A stretch of DNA of 64,000 nucleotides from Candidatus Latescibacterota bacterium (GCA_965204745.1 OZ242010.1:4416001-4480000), one strand, 5' to 3'. Shown: positions 6,001 to 33,265, counted from the first letter of the stretch. Notes: generated by a model not told the origin, from the letters alone. A program made the numbers and translations.

Positions 6001-8114
6001 GTGATTGCGGTATAGTCCGTGCCCGAAGTCGCGGTCCCGGTAGTCGCGTCTGTATAGCCCACCGTGACTTGCTGACCACCGGCCGCACTCAACGAGACGA
6101 TGAACTCAAGGGATGAACCGCTCCCTTCAGCCACACTCGGAGAACTAATACTCACCATCGGAAGACTGACGCCAGCGTCCTGTAGCGTCAAAGAGGCCCC
6201 GGTCACACTGCCCGCGCCATGGTCGTTACTCGCCACACCGGTCACGGTCACGACGCGATTACTAGCATCAATTTGGCCGTTATTCACCGCCGTGATCACT
6301 ACCGTGTCCGACGCGTTCGTCGTGTTCCCGGCGGCAATGGCAATCGTCGCATCCGACCCCACCGTGTAACCACCAGTCACCGGGCTCACCGTGATAGTCG
6401 TCGCCTCACTCGATGGATGTGCCAGCGTCGCCGTCACCGTGCTCACGCCGCCATTTTCCGAGATTGACGAGGGCGACAGCGTCAGCTGCACGCTCGGCGC
6501 GTCATCATCGTCTGTGATAGTCAATGTCACGGCAGACGGGGCCAACGCCCCATTGCCACCCGCCACCGTTGCAGACACGGTCACGCGCTTGTCCGGTGCA
6601 TCGGTCGTGTTGTTCACCGCTGTGATCGTCACAGTGCCCGTGCTCGTCGTCGCATTCGCCGCGATAGTCAGCGTGGCCGTGCTCGATAGCGTGAAGTCGC
6701 CCGCAACCGCAGGCGACACAGCCTGTGCTGAGACCGTGATCGTCGTCGCCGCGTTCGACGGATGTGCCAGCGTCGCGCTCACCGTGCTCACACCGCCGTC
6801 TTCCGAAATCGACGCGGGCGTCAGTGCCAACGTCACACTCGCGGGTTGGAGCCGAAATTGCACGGTGGTGTCCAGGCCGGCATACTTCAACACGGGATAC
6901 TGATCCGTCGCGCCAAAGTACCACGGCTCGTCGTTGCCCGTTTGCCCGTCCAGATTCAGGTTCCAGTTGGTGGCATAGATGCCGGTATAGCCGGTGGGGC
7001 TTTGGAGTGCGCTGGTGGCCTGGGGGATACCTTTTCCGGTGTCGTTTTGTCCAGTGGTGGTACTATCGTAGTAGCTGTGGCTACTTGAGCTACCAAATGC
7101 TTGGGTACCAACCAGGCCACCAACCGATGACGGGGTAGCACCACTGACCGGGCCGATGGCATAGCTACCGGTTATCGTGCTCTGATCGAAGTTGGCACCG
7201 ACCATGCCGCCGACGGCACTATTACCGCTGACTGTGCCGGTGGCATAGCTAGCGCGTATGGCGGCCCTTGGGGTGCCGCTGTTGCCGTGGTAGCCCACCA
7301 GGCCGCCGACGTAAGCCTGACCGCTGACTGCGCCGGTGACATAGCTAGCGGTTATCGTGCCGCTATTCCAGCCCACCATGCCGCCGAAGCTTATATTATC
7401 ACTAAGGCGGTTACCACGCCCAATGACGTTCACCTCGGAGCGACAGGCGGTAATGGTCGAGTTGCCGTGCGCCAGCCTGCCCACCAGGCCGGCGCTTCGT
7501 GCTAACCCGCTGACCTGTCCGGTGACGTGGATGTGCATGAGCTGTAGATTGTTGCCTTCGCCAACAAGGACAGCGACTTCAGCATCGCCGGTCACATTGG
7601 CGTTCACCAGGCTCAAATTGCGAATCGTGCCGCCCTCGGCATAGCCGAACAGCCCGGTTTTGCTGACGGCAGAGCGGTCGATAAACAGGTTGGAGATGGT
7701 ATTGTCGTTGCCGTGGAAGGTGCCGGTGTATTTCGTCGTGTTGTTACCGATGGGCATCCAGCCTGCGCCGCTGTTCCAGTAGGTGGCGTCTGCTACGGTG
7801 ATTTGACCGTCGCTATTCTCGTCAAAGTCCAAGTTGTTCATCAACTCGTAGCCGGTGCAGGTAGCCGGGCAACCCATGCCCGTGGCGGGGTTGGAAAAGG
7901 CGGTGGTGTAGTTCGTCCAGTCGCTGGCACTGACGCTGCCTCGTGCGCCATCGCCATCGAGGTCATAGCGAATGGCATTCAGTTGCAGCAAGGAGGTAAC
8001 GTCAATCAGGTTGTCGTTGTCCGAATCGTAATCGGTTTGGGCAAAAGCTGGCCCCGATGCCATCAGAAAAACCAGCGCGACCATAGCCAACAAATGAGTG
8101 TAGCGGGACATCAT
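1..8114 (-). CDS. Giant secreted adhesin-like protein (>2700 aa, runs off the left edge): signal peptide, EF-hand/GLUG module, Ig-like repeats, Fn3, cadherin/He_PIG-like and many Calx-beta repeats
   Basis: Hand translation at the 5' end gives MMSRYTHLLAMVALVFLMASGPAFAQTDYDSDNDNLIDV after a GGAG RBS. The same frame at 3-60 reads VTRDTIAVSVTGDDTNE (Calx-beta), and it is also open when spot-checked near 3.2 kb. It is probably missing from the ORF track because it has no stop in the window. Paralog of 21968-33265. Confidence 0.9.
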   Translation of the reverse strand, partial: MMSRYTHLLAMVALVFLMASGPAFAQTDYDSDNDNLIDVTSLLQLNAIRYDLDGDGARGSVSASDWTNYTTAFSNPATGMGCPATCTGYELMNNLDFDENSDGQITVADATYWNSGAGWMPIGNNTTKYTGTFHGNDNTISNLFIDRSAVSKTGLFGYAEGGTIRNLSLVNANVTGDAEVAVLVGEGNNLQLMHIHVTGQVSGLARSAGLVGRLAHGNSTITACRSEVNVIGRGNRLSDNISFGGMVGWNSGTITASYVTGAVSGQAYVGGLVGYHGNSGTPRAAIRASYATGTVSGNSAVGGMVGANFDQSTITGSYAIGPVSGATPSSVGGLVGTQAFGSSSSHSYYDSTTTGQNDTGKGIPQATSALQSPTGYTGIYATNWNLNLDGQTGNDEPWYFGATDQYPVLKYAGLDTTVQFRLQPASVTLALTPASISEDGGVSTVSATLAHPSNAATTITVSAQAVSPAVAGDFTLSSTATLTIAANATTSTGTVTITAVNNTTDAPDKRVTVSATVAGGNGALAPSAVTLTITDDDDAPSVQLTLSPSSISENGGVSTVTATLAHPSSEATTITVSPVTGGYTVGSDATIAIAAGNTTNASDTVVITAVNNGQIDASNRVVTVTGVASNDHGAGSVTGASLTLQDAGVSLPMVSISSPSVAEGSGSSLEFIVSLSAAGGQQVTVGYTDATTGTATSGTDYTAITDGTLTFAVGVTSRTITVSVTNDALDEDDETVIMTLRSPINAVFAGGRSTLTGTGTIRDNDEEPSLSIADASVTEVDDGDTASLEFIVTLSAVSGRQVTVGYTDAGTGTASSSTDYTAITDGTLTFAAGVTSDTLAVTVTGDDANEPNETVIVTLRNATNATISTTTGTGTINDNDASPTLSGLTLVAAKIVAPPANASYKNPATTYTSFSLGFTSLMPQTTSQLVTINNGPPSDGNSSYFHYVCADKDTRQVNPDGRTGCRQIGRLNHPTSITLTRAEVDFGGVMWHVWEGEGEVTVIREWIPIPVSDAAVTLTPTFSAGTTAYTGAIAQNRNSLRVTPTASSAASTISVSLNAGAATTVASASTHTLSSLSSGANTVSVTVTERSGSLPYTVTLSRGNSVPSFDTPVTTQTFTAGVSSEFQVPAATGGDGVLTYEATGLPAGLTFDADGSGSCTGARTICGTPTAGGTSSVTIYAVDADNDRTPADRGSLSFTINVRGVSISSTNPASLTESNLNSATVTLTLQHALFSSGVSASHFELVTAIPSVSITSLGAGAGGTTSAVLTLSFSGNFTTAQTLAVRVLAAGSNANSVLTTSTVTVSPSAGVTVSRSSLTLEEAPGGANANRGTYTVVLDAQPANNVVIGVSSNNSDVTLSSTSLTFTNGNWNTAQTVTVTAGQDTDDQDDTATVSHSVTTASGDYTTSLSIASVTVTVNDDDMLVRPTNVQVTALVDTLSVSWDAVTGATGYKVQWKSGSEVYNTTDRQASVTGVSHKIPDLTAGTTYTVRVIATRATFEDSEASDSATGVPKAPQPDAPTNVQVTALVDSLEVSWDAVTGATGYKVQWKSGSQAYNTTDRQTSVTGVSHKIPGLTGGTAYTVQVIATRTHADDSEASSEATGTPKPTLSGLALAVTTTKNPPANASYKNPATVYATFSIGFSTLLPQTTAQPVTITGPASDATNEYFHHVCANRDTRQGDPTGRTGCRQISILTHPTSITLTQAEVDSGGVMWHIYDEGSTATVMTAWISIPISESVTLMPSFASSIVNYTGNLPSITDSLHITPTASLGTATISVSINGGAANTVDSGDTHVISSLNRGANTVSVSVTESSQSTAYTVTLSRGNSVPSFGAGSVSDMTFTSGEGISGFRVPAATDGDGALTYEASGLPAGLTFDADGSGSCTGSLARSICGTPTAGGTFPVNIYAVDADDDRTPTDRASLSFTIKVAGVSISESSLTLNEDPGGSNANQGTYTVVLDIQPSSNVVIGVSSNNTDVILSSTSLTFTNGNWDSPQTVTVTANPDTDGLNDTASVTHRVTTASGSYRIGMSIASVSVTVNDDDEPALSIGSPSVVEGSGSSSLEFIVTLSIASSQQVTVDYADATTGTATSGTDYTAITDGTLTLAAGVTRDTIAVPVLADALDEDDETVIVTLSNASNATISTASGTGTITDDDDPPTLSIGSPSVDESDDTETASLEFIVTLSAASGKVVTVGYTDAGTGTATSGTDYTTITGGTLTLAAGVTRDTIAVTVTGDALDEENETVVVTLSSPTNATISTASGTGTITDDDDPPVVSIADASVAEGATGTTPSLEFIVSLSAVSGRQVTVDYADAGTGSATSGTDYTTIAAGTLTFAAGVTSDTLAVSVTGDGTNEPNETVIVRLSNPSNATLSGDGATLTGTGTITNDDGVPSLSISSPSVAEGSGSSSLEFVVTLNPASGQQVTVDYAETATGRTATPGVDYTALASGTLTIAAGVTRDTLAVSVTADALDEANETVVVELSNAVNAMISTATGTGTINDDDDEPTLSIADASVAEGATGATASLEFIVSLSAASGKVVTVVYAETATGRTATPGTDYTAITGGTLTLAAGVTRDTIAVTVRGDALDEENETVVVELSSPTNATISTASGTGTINDDDDEPSLSISSPSVAEGATGTTPSLEFIVTLSAASGKVVTVDYAETASGRTATPGTDYTAIAAGTLTLAAGVTRDTIAVSVTGDDTNE

Positions 8115-8297
8115 ATCAGACTCCTCTCGGGGGGGGGGGGGGGGGGGGTACACTGTACTGATCACCCTAACGGATTGTTTTGCAAGAAAATAAAAGCATG
8201 CACCAAGACGGGTATAGGAGACATGAACCCCGGTTTTCGCAGGGGAATAGGGGTCTCCAAACAGGTTTGAACAACGGGAAAAAATAGCAGTCAACAT
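8115..8297 (-). other. Leader ORF (MLTAIFSRCSNL...VISTVYPPPPPPREESD), currently fused in frame to giant gene 1
   Basis: GGGAGG RBS precedes the ATG at 8297. There is no stop before the ATG at 8114. It is homologous to leader 21801-21971. Confidence 0.75.
8129..8148. repeat. G20 homopolymer (C20 on the coding strand), putative slipped-strand phase-variation tract
   Basis: 20 consecutive G counted, directly adjacent to the RBS of giant gene 1. Confidence 0.85.
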
Positions 8298-8373
8298 GTG
8301 AACCCTCCCAAAAAAACAGAATGAGTTGTACAAACTTAGCATGCGCCAAATAACAATGGTGAAACAAGTATGA

Positions 8374-8401
8374 AATGTAACACCTTATATTTGTTTGTCA
8401 A
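8374..8401 (-). promoter_or_regulatory. Sigma70-like promoter for leader plus giant gene 1
   Basis: TTGACA-N16-TACATT; shares TTGACAAACAA with the promoter at 21690. Confidence 0.55.
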
Positions 8402-8468
8402 GACATTATTAGGCTCTGTTGACTTTTTTTTTGCGATGCGCTCGCCCGTGGGCGTGAGCGCGACGCCC

Positions 8469-8543
8469 TTGAACGGGCTATCGCCAGTTGTACCCCGCTC
8501 GTGCCTTTGAACGGGCTATCGCCAGTTGTACCCCGCTCGTGGC
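8469..8543. repeat. Two tandem 38-bp units (TTGAACGGGCTATCGCCAGTTGTACCCC...) of a dispersed repeat family
   Basis: Related copies at ~39371-39420, ~40676-40762 and inverted at ~54290-54326. Confidence 0.8.
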
Positions 8544-8584
8544 TAATCGCCTCGTGTGGCTCACTTCAGGTTGGGTGGTTGGGT

Positions 8585-8661
8585 GGGGACTGACTACTGA
8601 CTACTGACAACTGCCTCTTACCTCTTACCTCTTACGCTCTTACCTCTTACCTCTTACGCTC
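8585..8661. repeat. Heptamer tandem repeats (ACTGACT and CCTCTTA types)
   Basis: Read directly. The ACTGACT type recurs at ~10395, ~21093, ~44107 and ~54390; 14-mer versions occur at ~33601 and ~51280. Confidence 0.8.
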
Positions 8662-10380
8662 TTTGTGCGTCAGGGTAATGGCTGAGAGGGACAAGCCTGC
8701 GCGGGATTGTCGGTTGATGGCTTCGGCGCGGACTTCGATGGTATAAACCCCGGGCGCGTCGAGTTGGACATCGCCGATCACAGTGGCGGCCTCGGGGAAA
8801 TACCGCGCTTTGGGGCTGTCGCTCCAGGCGTCGGGGGCGATGGTTTTGCGGAAGCTGTGACCCGAAAGATCCACGCGAACTTCGTGTCCCCCCATCCAGT
8901 CGCGTGCTCGGCGGAGCGCGCTGGTGTGGATGCGGATTTCAAACGCGCCGGGGTGGGACACCTTGAACGCGCAATCGATCCAGTTGGACGTGCTGAACCA
9001 ATCTTCGATAACGCCGCTTTCGCCAATGCGGATTTGCGTTCCGGATTCGGGGGCGTGCAAATTGACCATGCTGGCGATCATGGTGATGCTGCCGTCGGCT
9101 TGCTGGATGGCGGTTTGATCGACATCGGGCGCGCCATCGAGATCCAAAGCCACGACCGCGACATGGGGATCCGGGCATTCGGGCAGGCGCAATTCCAGCA
9201 TGTCGCAGTCGTTGTCGCGGGTTTGAGACACTTCGATGGGTGCGCGTTCGTCTGCGAGCAGAGTCGCTTTTTGGACGCGGTTGTGCAGACCGGGCAGCGC
9301 GAACCGCTCGCCGGGCCAGTGGGTAAAGAGCAAATAGAGGCGGTTGCCTTTTTGCGTGATGCCGCCCCATGGAAATTCATGTGGATACGGCGTGGGCTTT
9401 GCGCCGTAGATGGCTTCGCCGTTGGTTTTCATCCAGTCGCCGATGGCGCGCAGGCGATAGACACTTTCATCGGGCACGCTGCCATCTGCACGCGGGCCGA
9501 TATTGAGCAAATAGTTGACCCCCTTGCTGCCGAGATCGACGAGCAGATGGAGCAGGGTTTTGACGCTTTTCCAGTTGTGGTCGTCGGTTTTGTACCCCCA
9601 CGTATCGTTGAGGGTGGCCGGCGTTTCCCAATACCCTTTGAGGCGGCCCGTGGGAATTTGGTTGTCCCCCAAACTGCCGTAGTCCCCCACGCCATTGCCC
9701 ACGCGGCCGCTTACGAGGCAGTCGGGTTGCAAGGTGTGGACCAGGCGGGAGAGGGACTGGCTTTGTTCCAATGAAATGGATACGGGCGTGTCGAACCAGA
9801 TCAGGCCGATGGGGCCGTATTGCGTGAGCAACTCGCGCACTTGGGGTTTGACTTTGTTTTTCAGATAAGAGGCGAAGTCCTTTGTCGCCGGGTCAAAGTC
9901 CCAGTCATTGCCCGAGGCATTGGGGTCGTGCCAGTCCTGATCTTGCGAGTAGTAAAAGCAGAGGCGGATGCCGTATTTTTGACAGGCTTTGGCGAGCGCG
10001 GCCATGATGTCTTTGCCGTAAGGCGTGGCATCGACGATGTCGTAGTCGCTGCACGGCGAGTCATACATGGCAAAGCCATCGTGGTGTTTGGCCGTGATGA
10101 CGAGGTATTTCATCCCCGCATCTCGCGCGAGTTTGGCGATGGCGTCGGCGTCGAAGTTCACGGGGTTGAATCGCGAGGCGAGTCGTTCGTATTCCGATGC
10201 CGGAATTTCTGCGCGCCGCATAATCCATTCGCCAATGCCCTCAATGGCTTTGCCCTTCCATTTGCCCGCGGGAATCGCGTACAGGCCCCAGTGGATAAAC
10301 ATGCCAAACCGCGCTTCTTCCCACCACGCAATGCGCTCGTGGTCGCGTTGGGTCTGGCGCGTCTTTGCTGCGGTATTCAT
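8647..10380 (-). CDS. Alpha-L-fucosidase (GH29) with C-terminal beta-sandwich
   Basis: Motifs RFGMFIHWG, ITAKHHDGF, IWFD and LLNIGPRADG. Confidence 0.92.
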   Translation of the reverse strand: MNTAAKTRQTQRDHERIAWWEEARFGMFIHWGLYAIPAGKWKGKAIEGIGEWIMRRAEIPASEYERLASRFNPVNFDADAIAKLARDAGMKYLVITAKHHDGFAMYDSPCSDYDIVDATPYGKDIMAALAKACQKYGIRLCFYYSQDQDWHDPNASGNDWDFDPATKDFASYLKNKVKPQVRELLTQYGPIGLIWFDTPVSISLEQSQSLSRLVHTLQPDCLVSGRVGNGVGDYGSLGDNQIPTGRLKGYWETPATLNDTWGYKTDDHNWKSVKTLLHLLVDLGSKGVNYLLNIGPRADGSVPDESVYRLRAIGDWMKTNGEAIYGAKPTPYPHEFPWGGITQKGNRLYLLFTHWPGERFALPGLHNRVQKATLLADERAPIEVSQTRDNDCDMLELRLPECPDPHVAVVALDLDGAPDVDQTAIQQADGSITMIASMVNLHAPESGTQIRIGESGVIEDWFSTSNWIDCAFKVSHPGAFEIRIHTSALRRARDWMGGHEVRVDLSGHSFRKTIAPDAWSDSPKARYFPEAATVIGDVQLDAPGVYTIEVRAEAINRQSRAGLSLSAITLTHKERKR

Positions 10381-21689: not shown

Positions 21690-21719
21690 TTGACAAACAA
21701 TAGCGCGATACTTTATTTT
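21690..21719 (+). promoter_or_regulatory. Sigma70-like promoter for leader plus giant gene 2
   Basis: TTGACAAACAA followed by an AT-rich -10 region; same -35 context as 8391-8401. Confidence 0.5.
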
Positions 21720-21800
21720 TTTCATTCACCATTGCGATTTTGAACGCGGAGAAAAAGCCGCGCCCGGTCTGTGCGACAGCTTTTGCAAAGGAGGATTCAG

Positions 21801-21971
21801 ATGATCACCGCCATTTTTAGCCGCTGTTTGAACCTCATTTGGCTCGATGTTCCCTCCGCGAAAAGTGGTGTTCATATCGCCCATCCTCGTCTTGGGACGT
21901 GGTTCTATTTTATTGCAAAACAGCCTGTTAGGATGATCAGTACATGCCCCTCGAGAGGGGGAACAAAATGA
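21801..21971 (+). CDS. 56-aa leader peptide translationally coupled to giant gene 2
   Basis: AAGGAGG RBS; the TGA overlaps the ATG at 21968 (ATGA); homologous to the leader at 8297. Confidence 0.75.
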   Translation: MITAIFSRCLNLIWLDVPSAKSGVHIAHPRLGTWFYFIAKQPVRMISTCPSRGGTK

Positions 21972-30900: not shown

Positions 30901-33265
30901 CATCGGCGGGCTAATCGGATCCTCTACTACAGGTAGCACAACCAATAGTTACTGGGACACCTCCACCAGCACCCGTGCCACCAGCGGGGGCGGCGGCACG
31001 GGCAAGACCACCAGTGAGCTCCAGAGCCAGACCACCTACGGTGCCACCAGCGACGACACCTACTACAACTGGAACGCCAACCTCGACGGACAAGCCGGCA
31101 ACGACGATCCGTGGACCTTTGGCAAGACGGATCAGTATCCGGTGTTGAAGTATGCCGGCATGGATACCACCGTGCAATTTCAGCTCCAACCCGCGGTAGT
31201 GATGTTGACCCTGATGCCCTCGACGATCTCGGAAAACAGTGGGGTTTCGACGGTGACCGCGACGCTGGCACACCCATTGAGCGCGGCAACGACGATCACA
31301 GTGCGTCCGGTGGCGGATGCCTACACGGTGGGGTCGGATTCGACGATCACCATCGCGGCCGGGAGCACGGCGAACGCGACGGATACCGTGGTCATTACAG
31401 CGGTGAACAACACCCAAGACGCGCCTAATCGCGACGTGACCGTGTCCGTTGTGGCACGCAACGCCCAAGGCGTGGGCAGTGTGACCGAGGCGACCTTGAC
31501 GCTGGAGGACGATGACGCCGCGCCGGACGTGACACTAATGCTGTCGCCCGCGTCCATCTCGGAGAACGGCGGTGTCTCGACGGTGACTGCGACGCTGTCT
31601 CATGCGTCAAGCGCGGCGACAACGATCACGGTGCGCCCGGTGGCGAATGCTTATACCGTAGGGTCGGATTCGACGATCACCATCGCGGCCGGGGATACGA
31701 CGAACGCGGCGGACACAGTAGAGATCACGGCGGTGGACAACACCCAAGACGCGCCTAATCGCAATGTGACCGTGTCCGGTGTAGCGAACAACGACCAAGG
31801 CGCGGGCAGTGTGACCGGCGCGGCTTTGACGATCACAGACGATGACGCGGCCCCGGACGTGACGATGATGGTGGCACCGGCGTTGATTTCTGAAGCTGGC
31901 GCGGTTTCGACCGTGACAGCGACCCTCTCGCACCCATCGAGCGCGGCGACGACGATCACGGTTTCAGCGTCGGCTGTGTCGCCTGCGGTTCCTGGCGATT
32001 TCACGCTATCGGGCGCGAACACGCTGACCGTCGCGGCGGGCGCGACGACGAGCACGGGCACCGTGACGATCACGACGGTGGACAACAGCATGTCTTCGGG
32101 GAACAAGACGGTGACCGTGTCGGCGAGCACGGTGGGCAACAGCATAGGCACGGGATCGGTCACTGCTACGACGCTGACGATTATCGATGACGAAGTGGCA
32201 CAGGTGACGTTGGTTTTGTCTCCGGCGTCGATTTCTGAGGCAGGCGCGGTTTCAACAGTAACGGCAACGCTAGATCGCACCGTGACCGCGGCGACGACGA
32301 TCACGGTTTCAGCGATGGCTGTGTCGCCTGCGGTTGCGGGCGATTTCACGCTATCGCCCACGAACACGCTGACCGTCGCGGCGAGTGTGACGACGAGCAC
32401 GGGCACCGTGACGATCACAGCGGTGAATAATACGACCGATGCACCGGACAAGCGCGTGACCGTGGCTGCAACGGTGGCGGGTGGCAATGGGGCGTCGCTA
32501 TCGTCTGCCGTGACCCTGACGATCACAGACGATGACGAAGCGCCGACCGTGACGTTGGTGCTCACCCCCTCGTCCATCTCGGAAAACGGCGAGGTTTCCA
32601 CGGTGAGCGCGACCCTATCGCATCCATCGAGCGCGGTCACGACGATCACGGTCTCTGCTACGCCTGTGTCCCCTGCGACTGCGAGCGACTTCACGCTATC
32701 GAGTGCAGACACCCTGATCATCGCGGTGACGACCACAACGAGCACGGGCACCGTGACGATCACCGCAGAGGACAACAACGACCAGGCAGACGAGAAGACG
32801 GTCACGGTGTCTGCAACCGCAAACAACGCCCAAGGCATCACCGCACCCTCACCCGTGACCCTGACCTTGACCGATGACGACGCACCGAGTGCCAACTTGG
32901 ATGTGGATGGCGATGGCCGGGTGAGATTGTTCTCGGATATAATCCTGGTCATTCGATATGTCCTCTTCTTCCGGAACGAGGCCCTCCTCAGAGGGAACGT
33001 CATCGAGCCAACTGCCACGCGCACGACCGCTCAAGAAATTGAACCCTACCTCGACACGTTGGTCAATCAGAACATTCTCGATGTGGATGGCGATGGCGAT
33101 GTGAGGCTGTTCTCGGATATAATCCTGATCATTCGATATGTCCTCTTCTTCCGGAACGAGGCCCTCCTCAGAGGGAACGTCATCGAGCAACAGGCTACGC
33201 GCACGACCGCTCAAGCCATTGAACCCTACATCCGAAGCCTCTATCCCGACTCCCACTTCCAATGA
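21968..33265 (+). CDS. Giant secreted adhesin-like protein (~3765 aa): five EF-hand/GLUG modules, about a dozen Fn3 domains, T/V/S-rich Ig-like repeats and two C-terminal dockerin-like repeats
   Basis: Signal peptide ending AFA-Q; repeated YD.DGDGLIDI, VGGLVG, GYKVQWKSG and TTYTVRVIAT motifs; C-terminal LDVDGDG.VRLFSDIIL.IRY twice. Confidence 0.92.
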   Translation: MTPRYAHLLALIVLVMLVASGPAFAQSTVDYDLDNDGYIDVANLAQLNAIRHDLNGNGDATHADYLAAFPSRDTTTTGRMGCLSGTCTGYELTASLDFDSDRDGDVDANDHGGAYWNNGAGWVPIGSNSSRYSGDFKGNGYTINNLFISRGGTNYIGLFGVSASGARLETLGITNANVRGQQLVGILVGRNYGTIVACYTTGKAQGDAFIGGIVGTSSATISTSYSTAYVSGTNSLGGLVAYSYGGTVENSYSTGRVSGSYSVGGLMGFIYYLNSPRVTASYWDTQTSNQSNSVAGTGQTTTALQGPTGYTGIYANWNANLDGQTGNDNPWTFGKTDQYPVLKYAGMDTTVQYNLQPPGIPTSVTVTPQRDTLDVRWRAASYATGYKVQWKAGMQSYAASRQATVADTLHQIPNLIGGTTYTVRVIATKTGARDGMPSAEQTGVPAALGSPTVMVAAKVDTLTVTWNAVPNAAGYKVQWKSGSATYPTSDRALATHGQATIAGGSTTIHKISGLTVGTTYTVQVIATSTNTNVADSTPSEEVIVLLALGSPTGVEVSAKVDTSTVTWNAVPLATGYKVQWKSGAETYPTADEESATRGQATIAGGGTTIHKISGLTAGTTYTVQVIATHTTTAGNSAPSQEVMVTAATTKPTNVRVTPGPGQLIVAWTEATGATGYKVQWKSGQQTYNTSDRQTTVSGMSTTTYTIENLTFGTTYTVRVTATMAGGTDSDPSDEVIGTPQRINYDRDGDGLIDIKTLAQLHAIRWDLNGDGVVADNDTMNYNAAFPSRDITSNVRMGCPSGTCTGYELLNNLNFDENGDDQITSADATYWNNGDGWLPIGTNAARYTGDFKGNGYTIDNLTINRPSLTEVGLFGNADTASRIESVGVTNASVAGGEYAAALVGALRGTVVACYSTGNVSATTRVAGGLVGWTPNAITSSYSTASVSGPEHVGGLLGASQGGSVTNSYSTGTVTGTGSSPLVGGLIGSGTGGTASYWDTQTSGCTSGGNNGCTTSAGGGGVTGLTTSELISPTTYGATSNDTYYGWNANLDGQPGNDDPWTFGATDQYPVLKYAGMDTTAQFQLQPARVMLTLMPSSISESGGMSTVTATLAHPLSAATTITVRPVADAYTVGSDSTITIATGSTANASDTVVITAVDNTQDAPNRDVDMSVVAGNAQGAGSVTEATLTLEDDDPAPTATLAASPASISENGAVSTITASLSRPSSAATTITVRPVAGAYTVGSDTTITIAAGDTINASDTVVITSVDNPQDAPNRDVTVSGVMSNTQGAGSVTGAALTLTDDDAAPDVTLALMPSSISENSGVSTVTATLSHSSSAATTITVRPVAGAYTVAATDSTITIAAGQTANASDTVVITAVNNDIDAMDNEVMVQADVENDHGAGTVQAVTLTITDDMGTPQAINYDSDGDGLIDIKTLAQLHAIRWDLNGDGVVADSDTTNYNAAFPGRDTTSSGRMGCPSGTCTGYELMNNLNFDENGDGEITSADATYWNSNAGWLPIGTYTGTFKGNNKTISNLYINRGGTVSNLGIVSGGQDDVGLFGRVSGNISGLGLKNVNVRGKNRVGGLVGEQVGGRILGCYVTGRVEGTGHHVGGLVGNSSGNNTIIAASYADAEVSGGLIHEGVGGLVGKLYATVIASYAIGPVTGRSRVGGLVGLLVISPSSVSTSYATGTVTGQVSSLLGGLIGRAQSQSVSHSYWDRESSGLSSSARGTGQTTSALQSETDYDGIYANWNVDVDGRSGNDDPWTFGAADQYPVLKYAGMDTTAQFAMQPPGIPTSVTVTGQTDTLDMRWTAASYATGYKVQWKSGMQSYDASRQATTTETRHKISNLTAGTTYTVRVIATKTGARDGRPSAEQTGVPTTTLGSPTVMVAATVDTLTVTWNVVPNATGYKVQWKSGSETYPNADLETSATRGQATIAGGNTAIHKISGLTAGTTYTVRVIATSTNIHVVDSAPSAEQTGISVLGSPTGVEVSATADTLTVTWNAVSNATGYKVQWKSGSETYPNADLASALRGQATIADGRTATYDISGLTTGTTYTIRVIATRTNVADSAPSEEVTGVPVLGSPTGVEVSAKVDTLTVTWNVVPNATGYKVQWKSGSETYPNADLASALRGQATIADGSATTHKISGLTAGTTYTIRVIATRTNVADSAPSEEVMVTSATNKPTNVRVTPGIAQLIVRWTEATGATGYKVQWKSGGQSYNTSDRQETVSGGSTTTYTIENLTIGTTYTVRVLATLAGGTDSTPSDEVMGTPPGINYDSDGDGLIDIKTLAQLHAIRWDLNGDGAIDASVSTSDTTAYNAAFPNRDTTSNVRMGCPSGTCTGYELMANLNFDENDDGEITSADATYWNGNAGWQPIGTYTGTFKGNNKTIFNLYINRGGTVSNLGISGGQDDVGLFGRVSGNISGLGLKNVNVRGKNRVGGLVGEQVGGRILGCYVTGRVEGTGHHVGGLVGHSSGNNTIIAASYANADVSGGLLHEGVGGLVGRLYATVIASYAIGPVTGRSRVGGLVGRLDISHSSVSTSYATGTVTGNNQTSTFLGGLIGRAQSQSVSHSYWDRQSSGLSSSARGTGQTTSALQSETDYNGIYANWNVDVDGRSGNDEPWTFGAADQYPVLKYAGMDTAAQFAMQPPGIPTSVTVTPQPSALDVRWTAASYATGYKVQWKAGGQNYDASRQATTTETRRKISNLAVGTTYTVRVIATKTGASDGRPSSEVAGTITIMNYDSDGDGLIDIKTLAQLHAIRHDLNGDGVVADSDTMTYNAAFPERNTTSNGRMGCPSGICTGYELVASLDFDSDSDGDVDANDHAGAYWNSGTGWSPIGNNSVRYTSDFKGNGHTINHLFISRSNTDNVGLFGGIHSTSRIETLGIINANVTGRGYSGILAGRSYGTVVACYTTGAVQGGDSVGGLVGYQNQNSAVINSSYSTASVSGASYVGGLVGRKFGNVTNSYSTGRVSGTGGNIGGLIGSSTTGSTTNSYWDTSTSTRATSGGGGTGKTTSELQSQTTYGATSDDTYYNWNANLDGQAGNDDPWTFGKTDQYPVLKYAGMDTTVQFQLQPAVVMLTLMPSTISENSGVSTVTATLAHPLSAATTITVRPVADAYTVGSDSTITIAAGSTANATDTVVITAVNNTQDAPNRDVTVSVVARNAQGVGSVTEATLTLEDDDAAPDVTLMLSPASISENGGVSTVTATLSHASSAATTITVRPVANAYTVGSDSTITIAAGDTTNAADTVEITAVDNTQDAPNRNVTVSGVANNDQGAGSVTGAALTITDDDAAPDVTMMVAPALISEAGAVSTVTATLSHPSSAATTITVSASAVSPAVPGDFTLSGANTLTVAAGATTSTGTVTITTVDNSMSSGNKTVTVSASTVGNSIGTGSVTATTLTIIDDEVAQVTLVLSPASISEAGAVSTVTATLDRTVTAATTITVSAMAVSPAVAGDFTLSPTNTLTVAASVTTSTGTVTITAVNNTTDAPDKRVTVAATVAGGNGASLSSAVTLTITDDDEAPTVTLVLTPSSISENGEVSTVSATLSHPSSAVTTITVSATPVSPATASDFTLSSADTLIIAVTTTTSTGTVTITAEDNNDQADEKTVTVSATANNAQGITAPSPVTLTLTDDDAPSANLDVDGDGRVRLFSDIILVIRYVLFFRNEALLRGNVIEPTATRTTAQEIEPYLDTLVNQNILDVDGDGDVRLFSDIILIIRYVLFFRNEALLRGNVIEQQATRTTAQAIEPYIRSLYPDSHFQ

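Follow-up and report, generated by a model that had tools for sequence, protein, structure and literature searches.

Cytosine Tracts of Variable Length Ending a Conserved Leader Reading Frame: a Candidate Translational Phase-Variation System for Giant Adhesin Genes of a Sponge-Associated Latescibacterota Symbiont

Slipped-strand phase variation is textbook knowledge for a few host-adapted pathogens, in which the unstable repeat lies within the target gene or in its promoter. Poly-C or poly-G tracts in promoters set the spacing of promoter elements at fim2 and fim3 of Bordetella pertussis and at porA and opc of Neisseria meningitidis, and the CAAT repeats of Haemophilus influenzae lic1, located inside the 5' end of the target gene, give three expression levels through alternative in-frame ATGs. 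The Salmonella mgtP leader is a proline-rich upstream reading frame; known leaders of this kind respond to physiology and do not vary genetically. Large autotransporters and two-partner-secretion adhesins carry an extended signal peptide region (ESPR). The contingency loci of Neisseria, Haemophilus, Campylobacter, and Helicobacter are described as homopolymers inside surface-protein genes (PMC3711429), the length of a homopolymer in the mRNA leader gives graded control of Helicobacter pylori tlpB by RepG (PMC8295292), and polyproline stalling in Escherichia coli uncouples translation from transcription and allows Rho termination (PMC5021804). Here, we describe a locus in a 64,000-nucleotide (nt) stretch of Candidatus Latescibacterota bacterium (GCA_965204745.1, OZ242010.1:4416001-4480000; hereafter the window, meaning the whole stretch analyzed), in which a run of 20 cytosines (C20) ends an upstream open reading frame (ORF), the leader, immediately before the gene for a giant secreted, adhesin-like protein.

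Anatomy of the leader-adhesin junction

The locus occupies the minus strand of the window. Its downstream gene begins with ATGATG at 8114-8109 and runs off the start of the window (8114-1). In the source genome, a single contig of 5,482,115 bp and 56.5% G+C that we refer to as G000, the gene encodes a protein of 6292 amino acids (aa) that opens MMSRYTHLLAMVALVFLMASGPAFAQTDYD.. and carries a signal peptide (..LMASGPAFA, with cleavage before QTDYD as judged by eye); Pfam domains within its first 2704 aa comprise eight Calx-beta stretches, fn3, and Cadherin-like, with GLUG motifs in the first 400 aa. The adhesin Shine-Dalgarno (SD) sequence, GAGAGGAG (8128-8121), stands 6 nt before the ATG and directly abuts the C20 homopolymer (8148-8129; G20 on the plus strand), which ends 14 nt ahead of the ATG and is the sole run of at least eight G or C in the window.

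The leader ORF (8297-8115, with its ATG at 8297-8295) comprises 61 codons at C20 (MLTAIFSRCSNLF..FYFLAKQSVRVISTVYPPPPPPREESD), the tract supplying the proline codons that close it. Its 61-codon open frame ends ..STVYPPPPPPREESD, and the C-terminal reading at C20, ..VYPPPPPPREESD, continues in frame into the ATGATG of the adhesin (MMSRYTHL..). A leader SD of its own, GGGAGGG (8309-8303), is found 5 nt ahead of the leader ATG within the predicted 5' untranslated region (UTR; 8367-8298). Further upstream, a sigma-70-type promoter (8401-8374) is predicted by consensus match: TTGACA at 8401-8396, a 16-nt spacer, and a TG-extended TACATT at 8379-8374, with 10 of 12 consensus positions matched. It was the sole promoter-like site in a scan of 7900-8800, in which shuffled sequences averaged 0.5 sites, and transcription would be expected to start near 8367.

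We read the leader at C18 through C22 by means of a script that altered the C count alone. At C20, the leader is in frame with the adhesin and the two ORFs fuse. At C19 and C22, the leader ends ..ERSLI, and its TGA begins at the second base of the adhesin ATG, giving an ATGA overlap; at C18 and C21, it ends ..PRGV with a stop codon 1 nt ahead of that ATG. The initial annotation had described a C20-terminated leader with its own ribosome binding site and had listed these readings for C19, C20, and C21, which the script reproduced exactly. Since poly-C encodes proline in every frame, the leader always traverses the tract, and, as likewise proposed, the adhesin ORF remains intact at each length, so that the tract sets only where the leader ends (in a fusion, in an ATGA overlap, or at a stop 1 nt upstream). 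The exact length of the window tract, 20 rather than 19 or 21, is that of the assembly consensus. A search with the 61-aa leader of the window returned no Pfam-A family at E values up to 1 and no NCBIfam model, and the author of the initial annotation had not recognized its family either.

The cassette family and its reading-frame states

Runs of C or G in G000 become about tenfold rarer with each additional base (814 runs for C6, 86 for C7, 4 for C8, and 3 for C9), and the window tract is far longer than base composition predicts. The genome holds 33 C/G runs of at least 10, of which 24, with lengths of C12 to C25, share the flanks of the window tract (..GATCAGTACAGTGTA-Cn-(TC)GAGAGG..AAAATGA..) and have about 250 nt of upstream cassette in common. 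Alignment of 400 nt upstream of these tracts revealed one common order, namely, CTTGACAA with a TAAT-like -10 element, a hairpin in the UTR, a GGAGG SD, the leader start and ORF, and the tract. The element CTTGACAA is kept in 21 of 24 aligned copies, the remaining three showing TTGTCA, TTGACT, or no TTGACA. A purine- or G-rich SD follows the tract in all family copies, and the main start has the form ATGA in 28 of 34 cassette copies, an approximate figure obtained by regular-expression count. Mismatch-tolerant motif search, cassette BLAST, and a peptide regular expression identified 13 additional copies with a short, interrupted, or deleted tract, bringing G000 to 36 leader ORFs and about 37 cassette-bearing genes. 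The initial annotation treated the junction as a single locus, whereas it is one member of this cassette family. The 24 long-tract genes alone sum to 61,537 codons (3.4% of the genome), and the cassette genes carry three unrelated types of signal peptide (M.PRYAHLLALVALGMLVASGPAFA, MVRFIFRFLSLPTWIAVLVMPLLIAPATA, and MTMFSRIYPVFIVLFGWLVTMIGFVPSAKA).

One further member lies in the window itself, on the plus strand (21690-21971). Its TTGACA is at 21690-21695 and its tract has decayed to C4 (21947-21950); its leader ORF (21801-21971; 56 aa, ..MISTCPSRGGTK) ends on a TGA that overlaps the ATG (21968) of a 3773-aa gene ending at 33265, and this cassette is locked in the ATGA state. The ORF lister starts the 3773-aa fn3/adhesin-like gene at an in-frame upstream ATG (21944) that arose within the decayed junction. 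By eye, the UTR hairpin between promoter and leader SD occurs with two versions of the stem (GCGCGG..CCGCGC and GCAGGC..GCCTGC) around a common AAAAGCC loop; it is present, for example, at 21743-21764 and is largely deleted in the first window copy (about 8320-8345, minus strand). Across the G000 copies, leader halves are combined as mosaics, a pattern that suggests recombination or gene conversion among cassette 5' ends. Two long-tract cassettes (276197 and 4491927) head very short main ORFs of 59 and 128 aa, which are probably remnants of broken giant genes or reflect frameshifts further in.

Outside G000, the cassette was traced to two other species of the same genus, G018 and G016. A 23-nt motif occurred in 3 of 41 relatives' genomes, G000 included (24 hits in G000, 8 in G018, and 1 in G016), and the 321-nt cassette matched 5 of 21 genomes of the genus, again counting G000; the matches in G010 and G020 were discounted, as these consist of the C run alone between other flanks. 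G018 contains 11 full cassettes (C16 to C31) at about 70% nucleotide identity with the ATGA overlap retained, and G016 contains one (C17). Likewise, a narrow peptide-pattern scan of genome contigs matched only these two relatives, with nothing found elsewhere among those searched. In protein space, a leader profile run against a set of 5.8 billion proteins gave 66 clusters, all unnamed, and an exhaustive HMMER pass over 1.84 billion representatives gave 24 matches, all with the leader at residue 1: eight were fused forms of 306 to 2446 aa, 16 measured 46 to 122 aa, and no distant relatives were among them. By these comparisons, the leader family appears narrow and lineage-specific, and the system genome-wide and genus-restricted. 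Of 14 public sequencing runs listed, from five studies on sponge or marine metagenomes or coded organisms, 12 contain part of the stretch; the organism is an uncultured sponge-associated symbiont, with its placement in Latescibacterota taken from its relatives.

Comparison of the copies supports the view, also put forward in the initial annotation, that the leader is a coding ORF. None of the 36 leader copies in G000 has lost its start codon (35 ATG and 1 GTG), a GGAGG-type SD precedes it in the aligned G000 copies and likewise in G018 and G016, and none of 31 aligned copies has a stop in the leader frame, compared with 12 to 31 of the 31 in the other five frames. The pairwise ratio of nonsynonymous to synonymous differences (pN/pS) is 0.53 in the leader frame and 0.40 over its last 20 codons, versus 0.92 and 1.21 in the shifted frames. 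Length changes also respect the frame: the distance from ATG to tract in G000 is mostly 149 nt and is 161 nt (+12) in six copies, and in the related species it is 155 (+6), 92 (-57), or 182 (+33) nt, every change being a multiple of three. Changes of other sizes are confined to the tract border, where they are equivalent to changes of the tract. The parts conserved across species are the N terminus (MLTAIFRRCLNL) and the C terminus (..IAKQ.VR.I.T.Y followed by n prolines). From this pattern, we infer that the leader is translated.

The 24 long-tract loci of G000 are distributed over all possible endings of the leader. Ten, including the window locus, are fused in frame with the adhesin; in seven the leader stops on ATGA, in two it stops 1 nt before the ATG, and in five it runs 67 to 116 nt out of frame into the adhesin ORF. 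Counted by frame, the fused, ATGA, and third frames hold 10, 8, and 6 loci, respectively, a distribution that does not depart from equal shares (chi-square p = 0.61). The copies in G018 comprise 2 fused, 4 ATGA, and 5 third-frame cases, and the single G016 copy is fused. Stop-start overlap is realized at 7 of 24 long-tract and 4 locked loci of G000 and at 4 of 11 loci of G018, and at the window locus it arises only at C19 or C22. Eleven tract-less G000 copies have a leader that reaches the junction, and their state is locked: six are fused, four are ATGA, one overlaps out of frame, and the third frame is unoccupied. By a binomial calculation, its absence among 11 copies has a probability of 0.012, a post hoc value for copies that are related and not independent. 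This skew hints that the fused and ATGA states may be tolerated in the long term and that a long out-of-frame overlap may not.

All six locked fused copies keep intact ORFs of about 1500 to 2900 aa. In three copies, a deletion has created a direct in-frame junction between leader and adhesin, namely, 4580245 (plus strand, 1760 aa), 1650935 (minus strand, 2462 aa), and 2402441 (minus strand, 1904 aa). More specifically, the junction in 4580245 connects leader codon 43 with the hydrophobic core of the signal peptide, and because the tract is lost together with the adhesin's own SD and ATG, its 1760-aa ORF can be translated only from the leader start. The suggestion of the initial annotation that the fused form may not be exported, and with it any equation of fused with dead, is doubtful, because six tract-less copies have become fixed as fusions with intact ORFs.

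Tract length also differs between orthologous loci of related assemblies, with ortholog lengths deduced from called proteins rather than from the DNA of those contigs. The G000 locus at 4491927 (C17) encodes a fused protein of 188 aa (P0070). An assembly with a 5,279,007-nt contig encodes a leader identical to that of P0070 that ends YPPPPPPPRGV before a stop (P0074, implying C21) and, as a separate 128-aa ORF (P0068), the rest of P0070, also identical. Similarly, leaders sharing their first 37 residues with the window leader terminate in PPPPPPPRGV (P0011), PPPPPPPPSRGV (P0083), or YPSPPSRGV (P0084), each followed by a stop; P0002 and P0072 have nine and seven prolines, respectively, and are otherwise identical; and P0003 (YPPPPLERILI, stop) matches the G000 locus at 2634032 (YPPPPPSRGF, stop). 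Differences of 4 to 6 nt are larger than we would expect from consensus error alone. The inter-strain length difference at one and the same locus that is characteristic of contingency loci is therefore found here, as judged from protein-derived lengths, and the variability anticipated in the initial annotation is borne out. An assembly artefact, which that annotation had considered, does not account for the architecture, because the same layout recurs in the genomes of two other species and in metagenome-derived proteins.

A candidate switching mechanism and its alternatives

On balance, we favor the explanation that these cassettes constitute a multi-locus slipped-strand contingency system that would act through the reading frame of the leader. 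The cassettes are likely to work as contingency loci because of the excess length of the tracts, their presence at many surface-protein loci, and their length polymorphism between strains; we further infer that output or export of the adhesin depends on the state and that tracts switch within populations. In this scheme, a single transcript covering leader and adhesin would begin upstream of the leader, since the sole promoter-like site lies there. Ribosomes would load at the leader SD and would always cross the tract as polyproline, and tract length modulo three would decide only what happens behind it. A leader stop within the adhesin ATGA would allow termination to be coupled to reinitiation. 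Where the leader stops just upstream, or reads 67 to 116 nt out of frame, leader ribosomes would occlude the adhesin start; a stop right next to the ATG might also permit coupling. Where the two are in frame, the adhesin would be made as a fusion, its signal peptide preceded by about 60 additional N-terminal residues. A single C gained or lost at replication would move each gene independently among these three translational states, and a clonal symbiont population could thereby display many combinations of giant surface proteins.

We tentatively regard the ATGA and fused states as productive and the long out-of-frame overlap as low in output, with independent initiation at the adhesin's own conserved SD probably adding a baseline. 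A stronger version of this scheme assigns three heritable and reversible states to each of about 24 genes, i.e., coupled and secreted, occluded and low, or fused, in which case the leader and polyproline would function as a different, longer targeting sequence and would alter what becomes of the adhesin instead of silencing it, and so allows up to 3^24 genotypes; we consider this version possible and rather doubtful.

Several observations weigh against the leader-frame explanation. The adhesin's own strong SD could initiate translation without the leader, and two genes lacking a complete leader keep long intact ORFs, one at 1080204 (1501 aa), where the leader stops 38 nt upstream, and one at 4404928, which has no leader and yet an intact ORF of 1228 aa, indicating that the leader is not indispensable. 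The leader peptide is under only moderate constraint, and entropy by codon position (0.43/0.30/0.49) is a weak coding signature. In one G018 copy (L031), an inner segment of the leader is frame-shifted and the frame is still open; because this copy stays open despite its internal frameshift, translation through the tract may matter more than the leader peptide itself. Near-equal occupancy of the three frames is uninformative as to which state is ON. As regards the tract, consensus sequences at 20-nt homopolymers can err by one base, and among the assembled contigs of four public runs (X1, X3, X7, and X8), no listed piece bridges 8129-8148, pieces ending at 8148 in X1 and X3 and at 8161 in X7, a gap that carries no conclusion. 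Finally, RNA polymerase tends to slip on long C runs and ribosomes on CCC-C, and a single allele could hence produce a mixture of all three products.

If such slippage were the main function of the C run, the junction would be a recoding site, every allele would yield a mixture of leader alone and fusion, and variation of DNA length would be a side effect. Long homopolymers favor slippage during transcription, and CCC-C favors a +1 slip of the ribosome; 12 to 31 C are placed exactly at an ORF junction with a defined product in all three frames, and fused forms are common (10 of 24 loci in G000 and 8 of 24 database representatives). Recoding sites are, however, normally short and of fixed length, whereas tract length here varies from 12 to 31 and is not the same in orthologs, and copies with decayed tracts persist as either fused or ATGA forms, making this explanation improbable. 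We give somewhat more credit, while still regarding it as unlikely, to a hypermutable tract that acts through its length, by EF-P-dependent polyproline stalling about 20 nt before the adhesin start, by C:G pairing with the G-rich SD, or by Rho loading, with graded output in each case. The E. coli and H. pylori examples cited at the outset offer precedents, poly-C is proline in every frame, and minimum-energy folding of paralogs whose SD reads GAGGGGGA brings tract and SD into pairing (L002, L008, and L024, the last with z = -3.1). In the window copy, by contrast, the tract is unpaired, and folding is no better than in shuffled sequences (z = +1.1 for the junction and +0.9 for the whole leader); energies of pairing between C tract and SD are unremarkable save in one G018 copy. 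Furthermore, a pure length model does not account for the conservation of the leader start, for the frame being open, or for the ATGA overlap, and the 6-nt difference between P0002 and P0072, which leaves the frame unchanged, also speaks against it.

A tract devoid of any regulatory role would mean that the adhesin is always made from its own SD and ATG, that the leader is a relic or irrelevant, and that the tracts are maintained by biased mutation or by gene conversion between the 5' ends of paralogs. The strong independent SD in every copy, the two intact genes without a full leader, and a frame occupancy indistinguishable from random all fit this idea. Nevertheless, uninterrupted runs of 12 to 31 C at 24 + 11 + 1 loci in three species would be hard to keep without selection, given that interruption does occur, as the decayed copies show; in addition, the leader frame is conserved with pN/pS below 1, and no locked copy is in the third frame. 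There is, in our estimation, little chance that the tract is without a role. Still less probable is phase variation by promoter spacing, of the type seen in Bordetella fim or Neisseria porA/opc, from a second promoter just upstream of the adhesin. By eye, two candidate elements precede the tract, a TACAGT hexamer (TACAAT in G018) at a distance of 3 nt and TGTTAGGAT at 20 nt. Against this, the scan detected no promoter-like site at the tract, the sole one being about 225 nt upstream of it; no -35 element is located 16 to 18 nt from either hexamer; a -10 element after the tract would have no room, with the ATG 14 to 19 nt away; and the tract region belongs to a conserved open frame. As the tract does not lie between promoter elements, we rejected the promoter-spacing model.

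Searches for other determinants gave the following results. RNAalifold on 31 leader copies returned a consensus energy of -0.88, i.e., near zero, and for a suspected hairpin around GCGAAAA the registers differ among copies, so we claim no covariation. A RepG-like small RNA acting on the tract is a conceivable further alternative; Rfam gave no match in 7900-8800 at E values up to 1, a search that did not extend to G-rich small RNAs across the genome. A lack of mismatch repair was dropped as an idea, since a 910-aa frame containing MutS_I is present.

Six of the remaining long C/G runs in the G000 contig (C1) were also noted. The C19 run at 1833000-1833018 follows eight codons after an ATG (MSIKNNNL, then n prolines) at the head of a 305-codon frame and resembles a classical in-gene switch; at C19, by our reading, the ATG and the long frame are not in register. 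Its flanks are conserved in G018 (L033, C23), and similar tracts flanked as TA-Cn-GAA occur in G010 (L035, C20), G020 (L036, C24), and G018 (L032, C24). Other non-cassette runs are found at 732472 (G21), 1578675 (C18), 3250395 (C13), 4295687 (G13), and 4540232 (G16); those at 3250395 and 4295687 are inverted copies of one sequence. Upstream of the window promoter (8465-8541 and 8569-8663), a 38-nt unit is present twice (97% match), followed by arrays with periods of 7 to 8 nt (ACTGACT, 3.6 copies, and CCTCTTA, 6.9 copies). Summed contig depth in the public runs is 50 to 1000 times higher over 8471-8572 than over neighboring unique sequence, identifying the repeat unit as an element of high copy number in those metagenomes. 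In other cassette copies, the upstream sequence contains different repeated elements.

Relation to known systems

What sets the arrangement described here apart is that the repeat ends a conserved upstream ORF, so that the giant ORF survives every state and what changes is the connection between leader and adhesin, with three states per gene. Should these states differ in output or export, the cassettes would represent a new wiring for a contingency locus, a natural system tying polyproline translation, EF-P, and translational coupling to heritable switching, and a sign that stochastic surface variation matters in sponge-microbe symbiosis, for instance with respect to phage, phagocytosis by the host, or the choice of adhesion. 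If the three-state reading is true, combinatorial surface variation would operate through the frame of a leader ORF in a nonpathogenic animal symbiont of a candidate phylum. In practice, annotations will be inconsistent, because whether gene callers report a cassette gene as fused or split will vary with tract length, which is poorly resolved in assemblies. Our search of the open full-text literature found no paper describing a phase switch in which a hypermutable homopolymer is combined with an upstream ORF or leader peptide, and nothing that links Latescibacterota with phase variation.

The fused state recalls the ESPR, in that a giant adhesin acquires an N-terminal extension before a classical signal peptide. 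Unlike the ESPR, this extension of about 60 aa includes polyproline and is optional, depending on tract length; the 61-aa leader is also without a match in Pfam-A, which presumably includes an ESPR model, or in NCBIfam. When compared with arrest peptides of the SecM/ApdA type, the leader is best conserved at its C terminus (..FYFIAKQSVRMISTVY followed by n prolines; pN/pS 0.40), and no hydrophobic export signal was apparent by eye. As in lic1, repeat length modulo three gives three translational states, and the differences are that a separate leader ORF, stop-start coupling, and a homopolymer are used here. Similarity to fim2/fim3, porA, and opc consists in a poly-C tract upstream of a surface-protein gene with several paralogs; in contrast to those promoters, the tract is separated from the predicted promoter by about 225 nt and forms part of an open leader frame beside the SD.

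With coupled or proline-rich leaders, such as mgtP and the EF-P-related coupling of PMC5021804, the cassettes share a small upstream ORF with its own SD, termination beside the downstream start, and consecutive proline codons, the distinction being that a hypermutable tract would set the end of the leader. H. pylori tlpB-hp0102 and RepG likewise combine a variable homopolymer in the mRNA leader with post-transcriptional control and more than two expression levels; as described in PMC8295292, that system relies on a trans-acting small RNA and has no upstream ORF, whereas here Rfam gave no match to a partner RNA and a conserved leader ORF reads through the tract. There is also a resemblance to the contingency loci of Neisseria, Haemophilus, Campylobacter, and Helicobacter, with which the cassettes have in common a long G/C homopolymer, a large number of loci, surface or secreted targets, and length differences between strains. 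They differ from those loci in that the organism is an uncultured sponge-associated member of Latescibacterota and not a pathogen, in that the tracts are unusually long (12 to 31), and in that the tract ends a separate conserved upstream ORF, so that the adhesin is truncated in no state.

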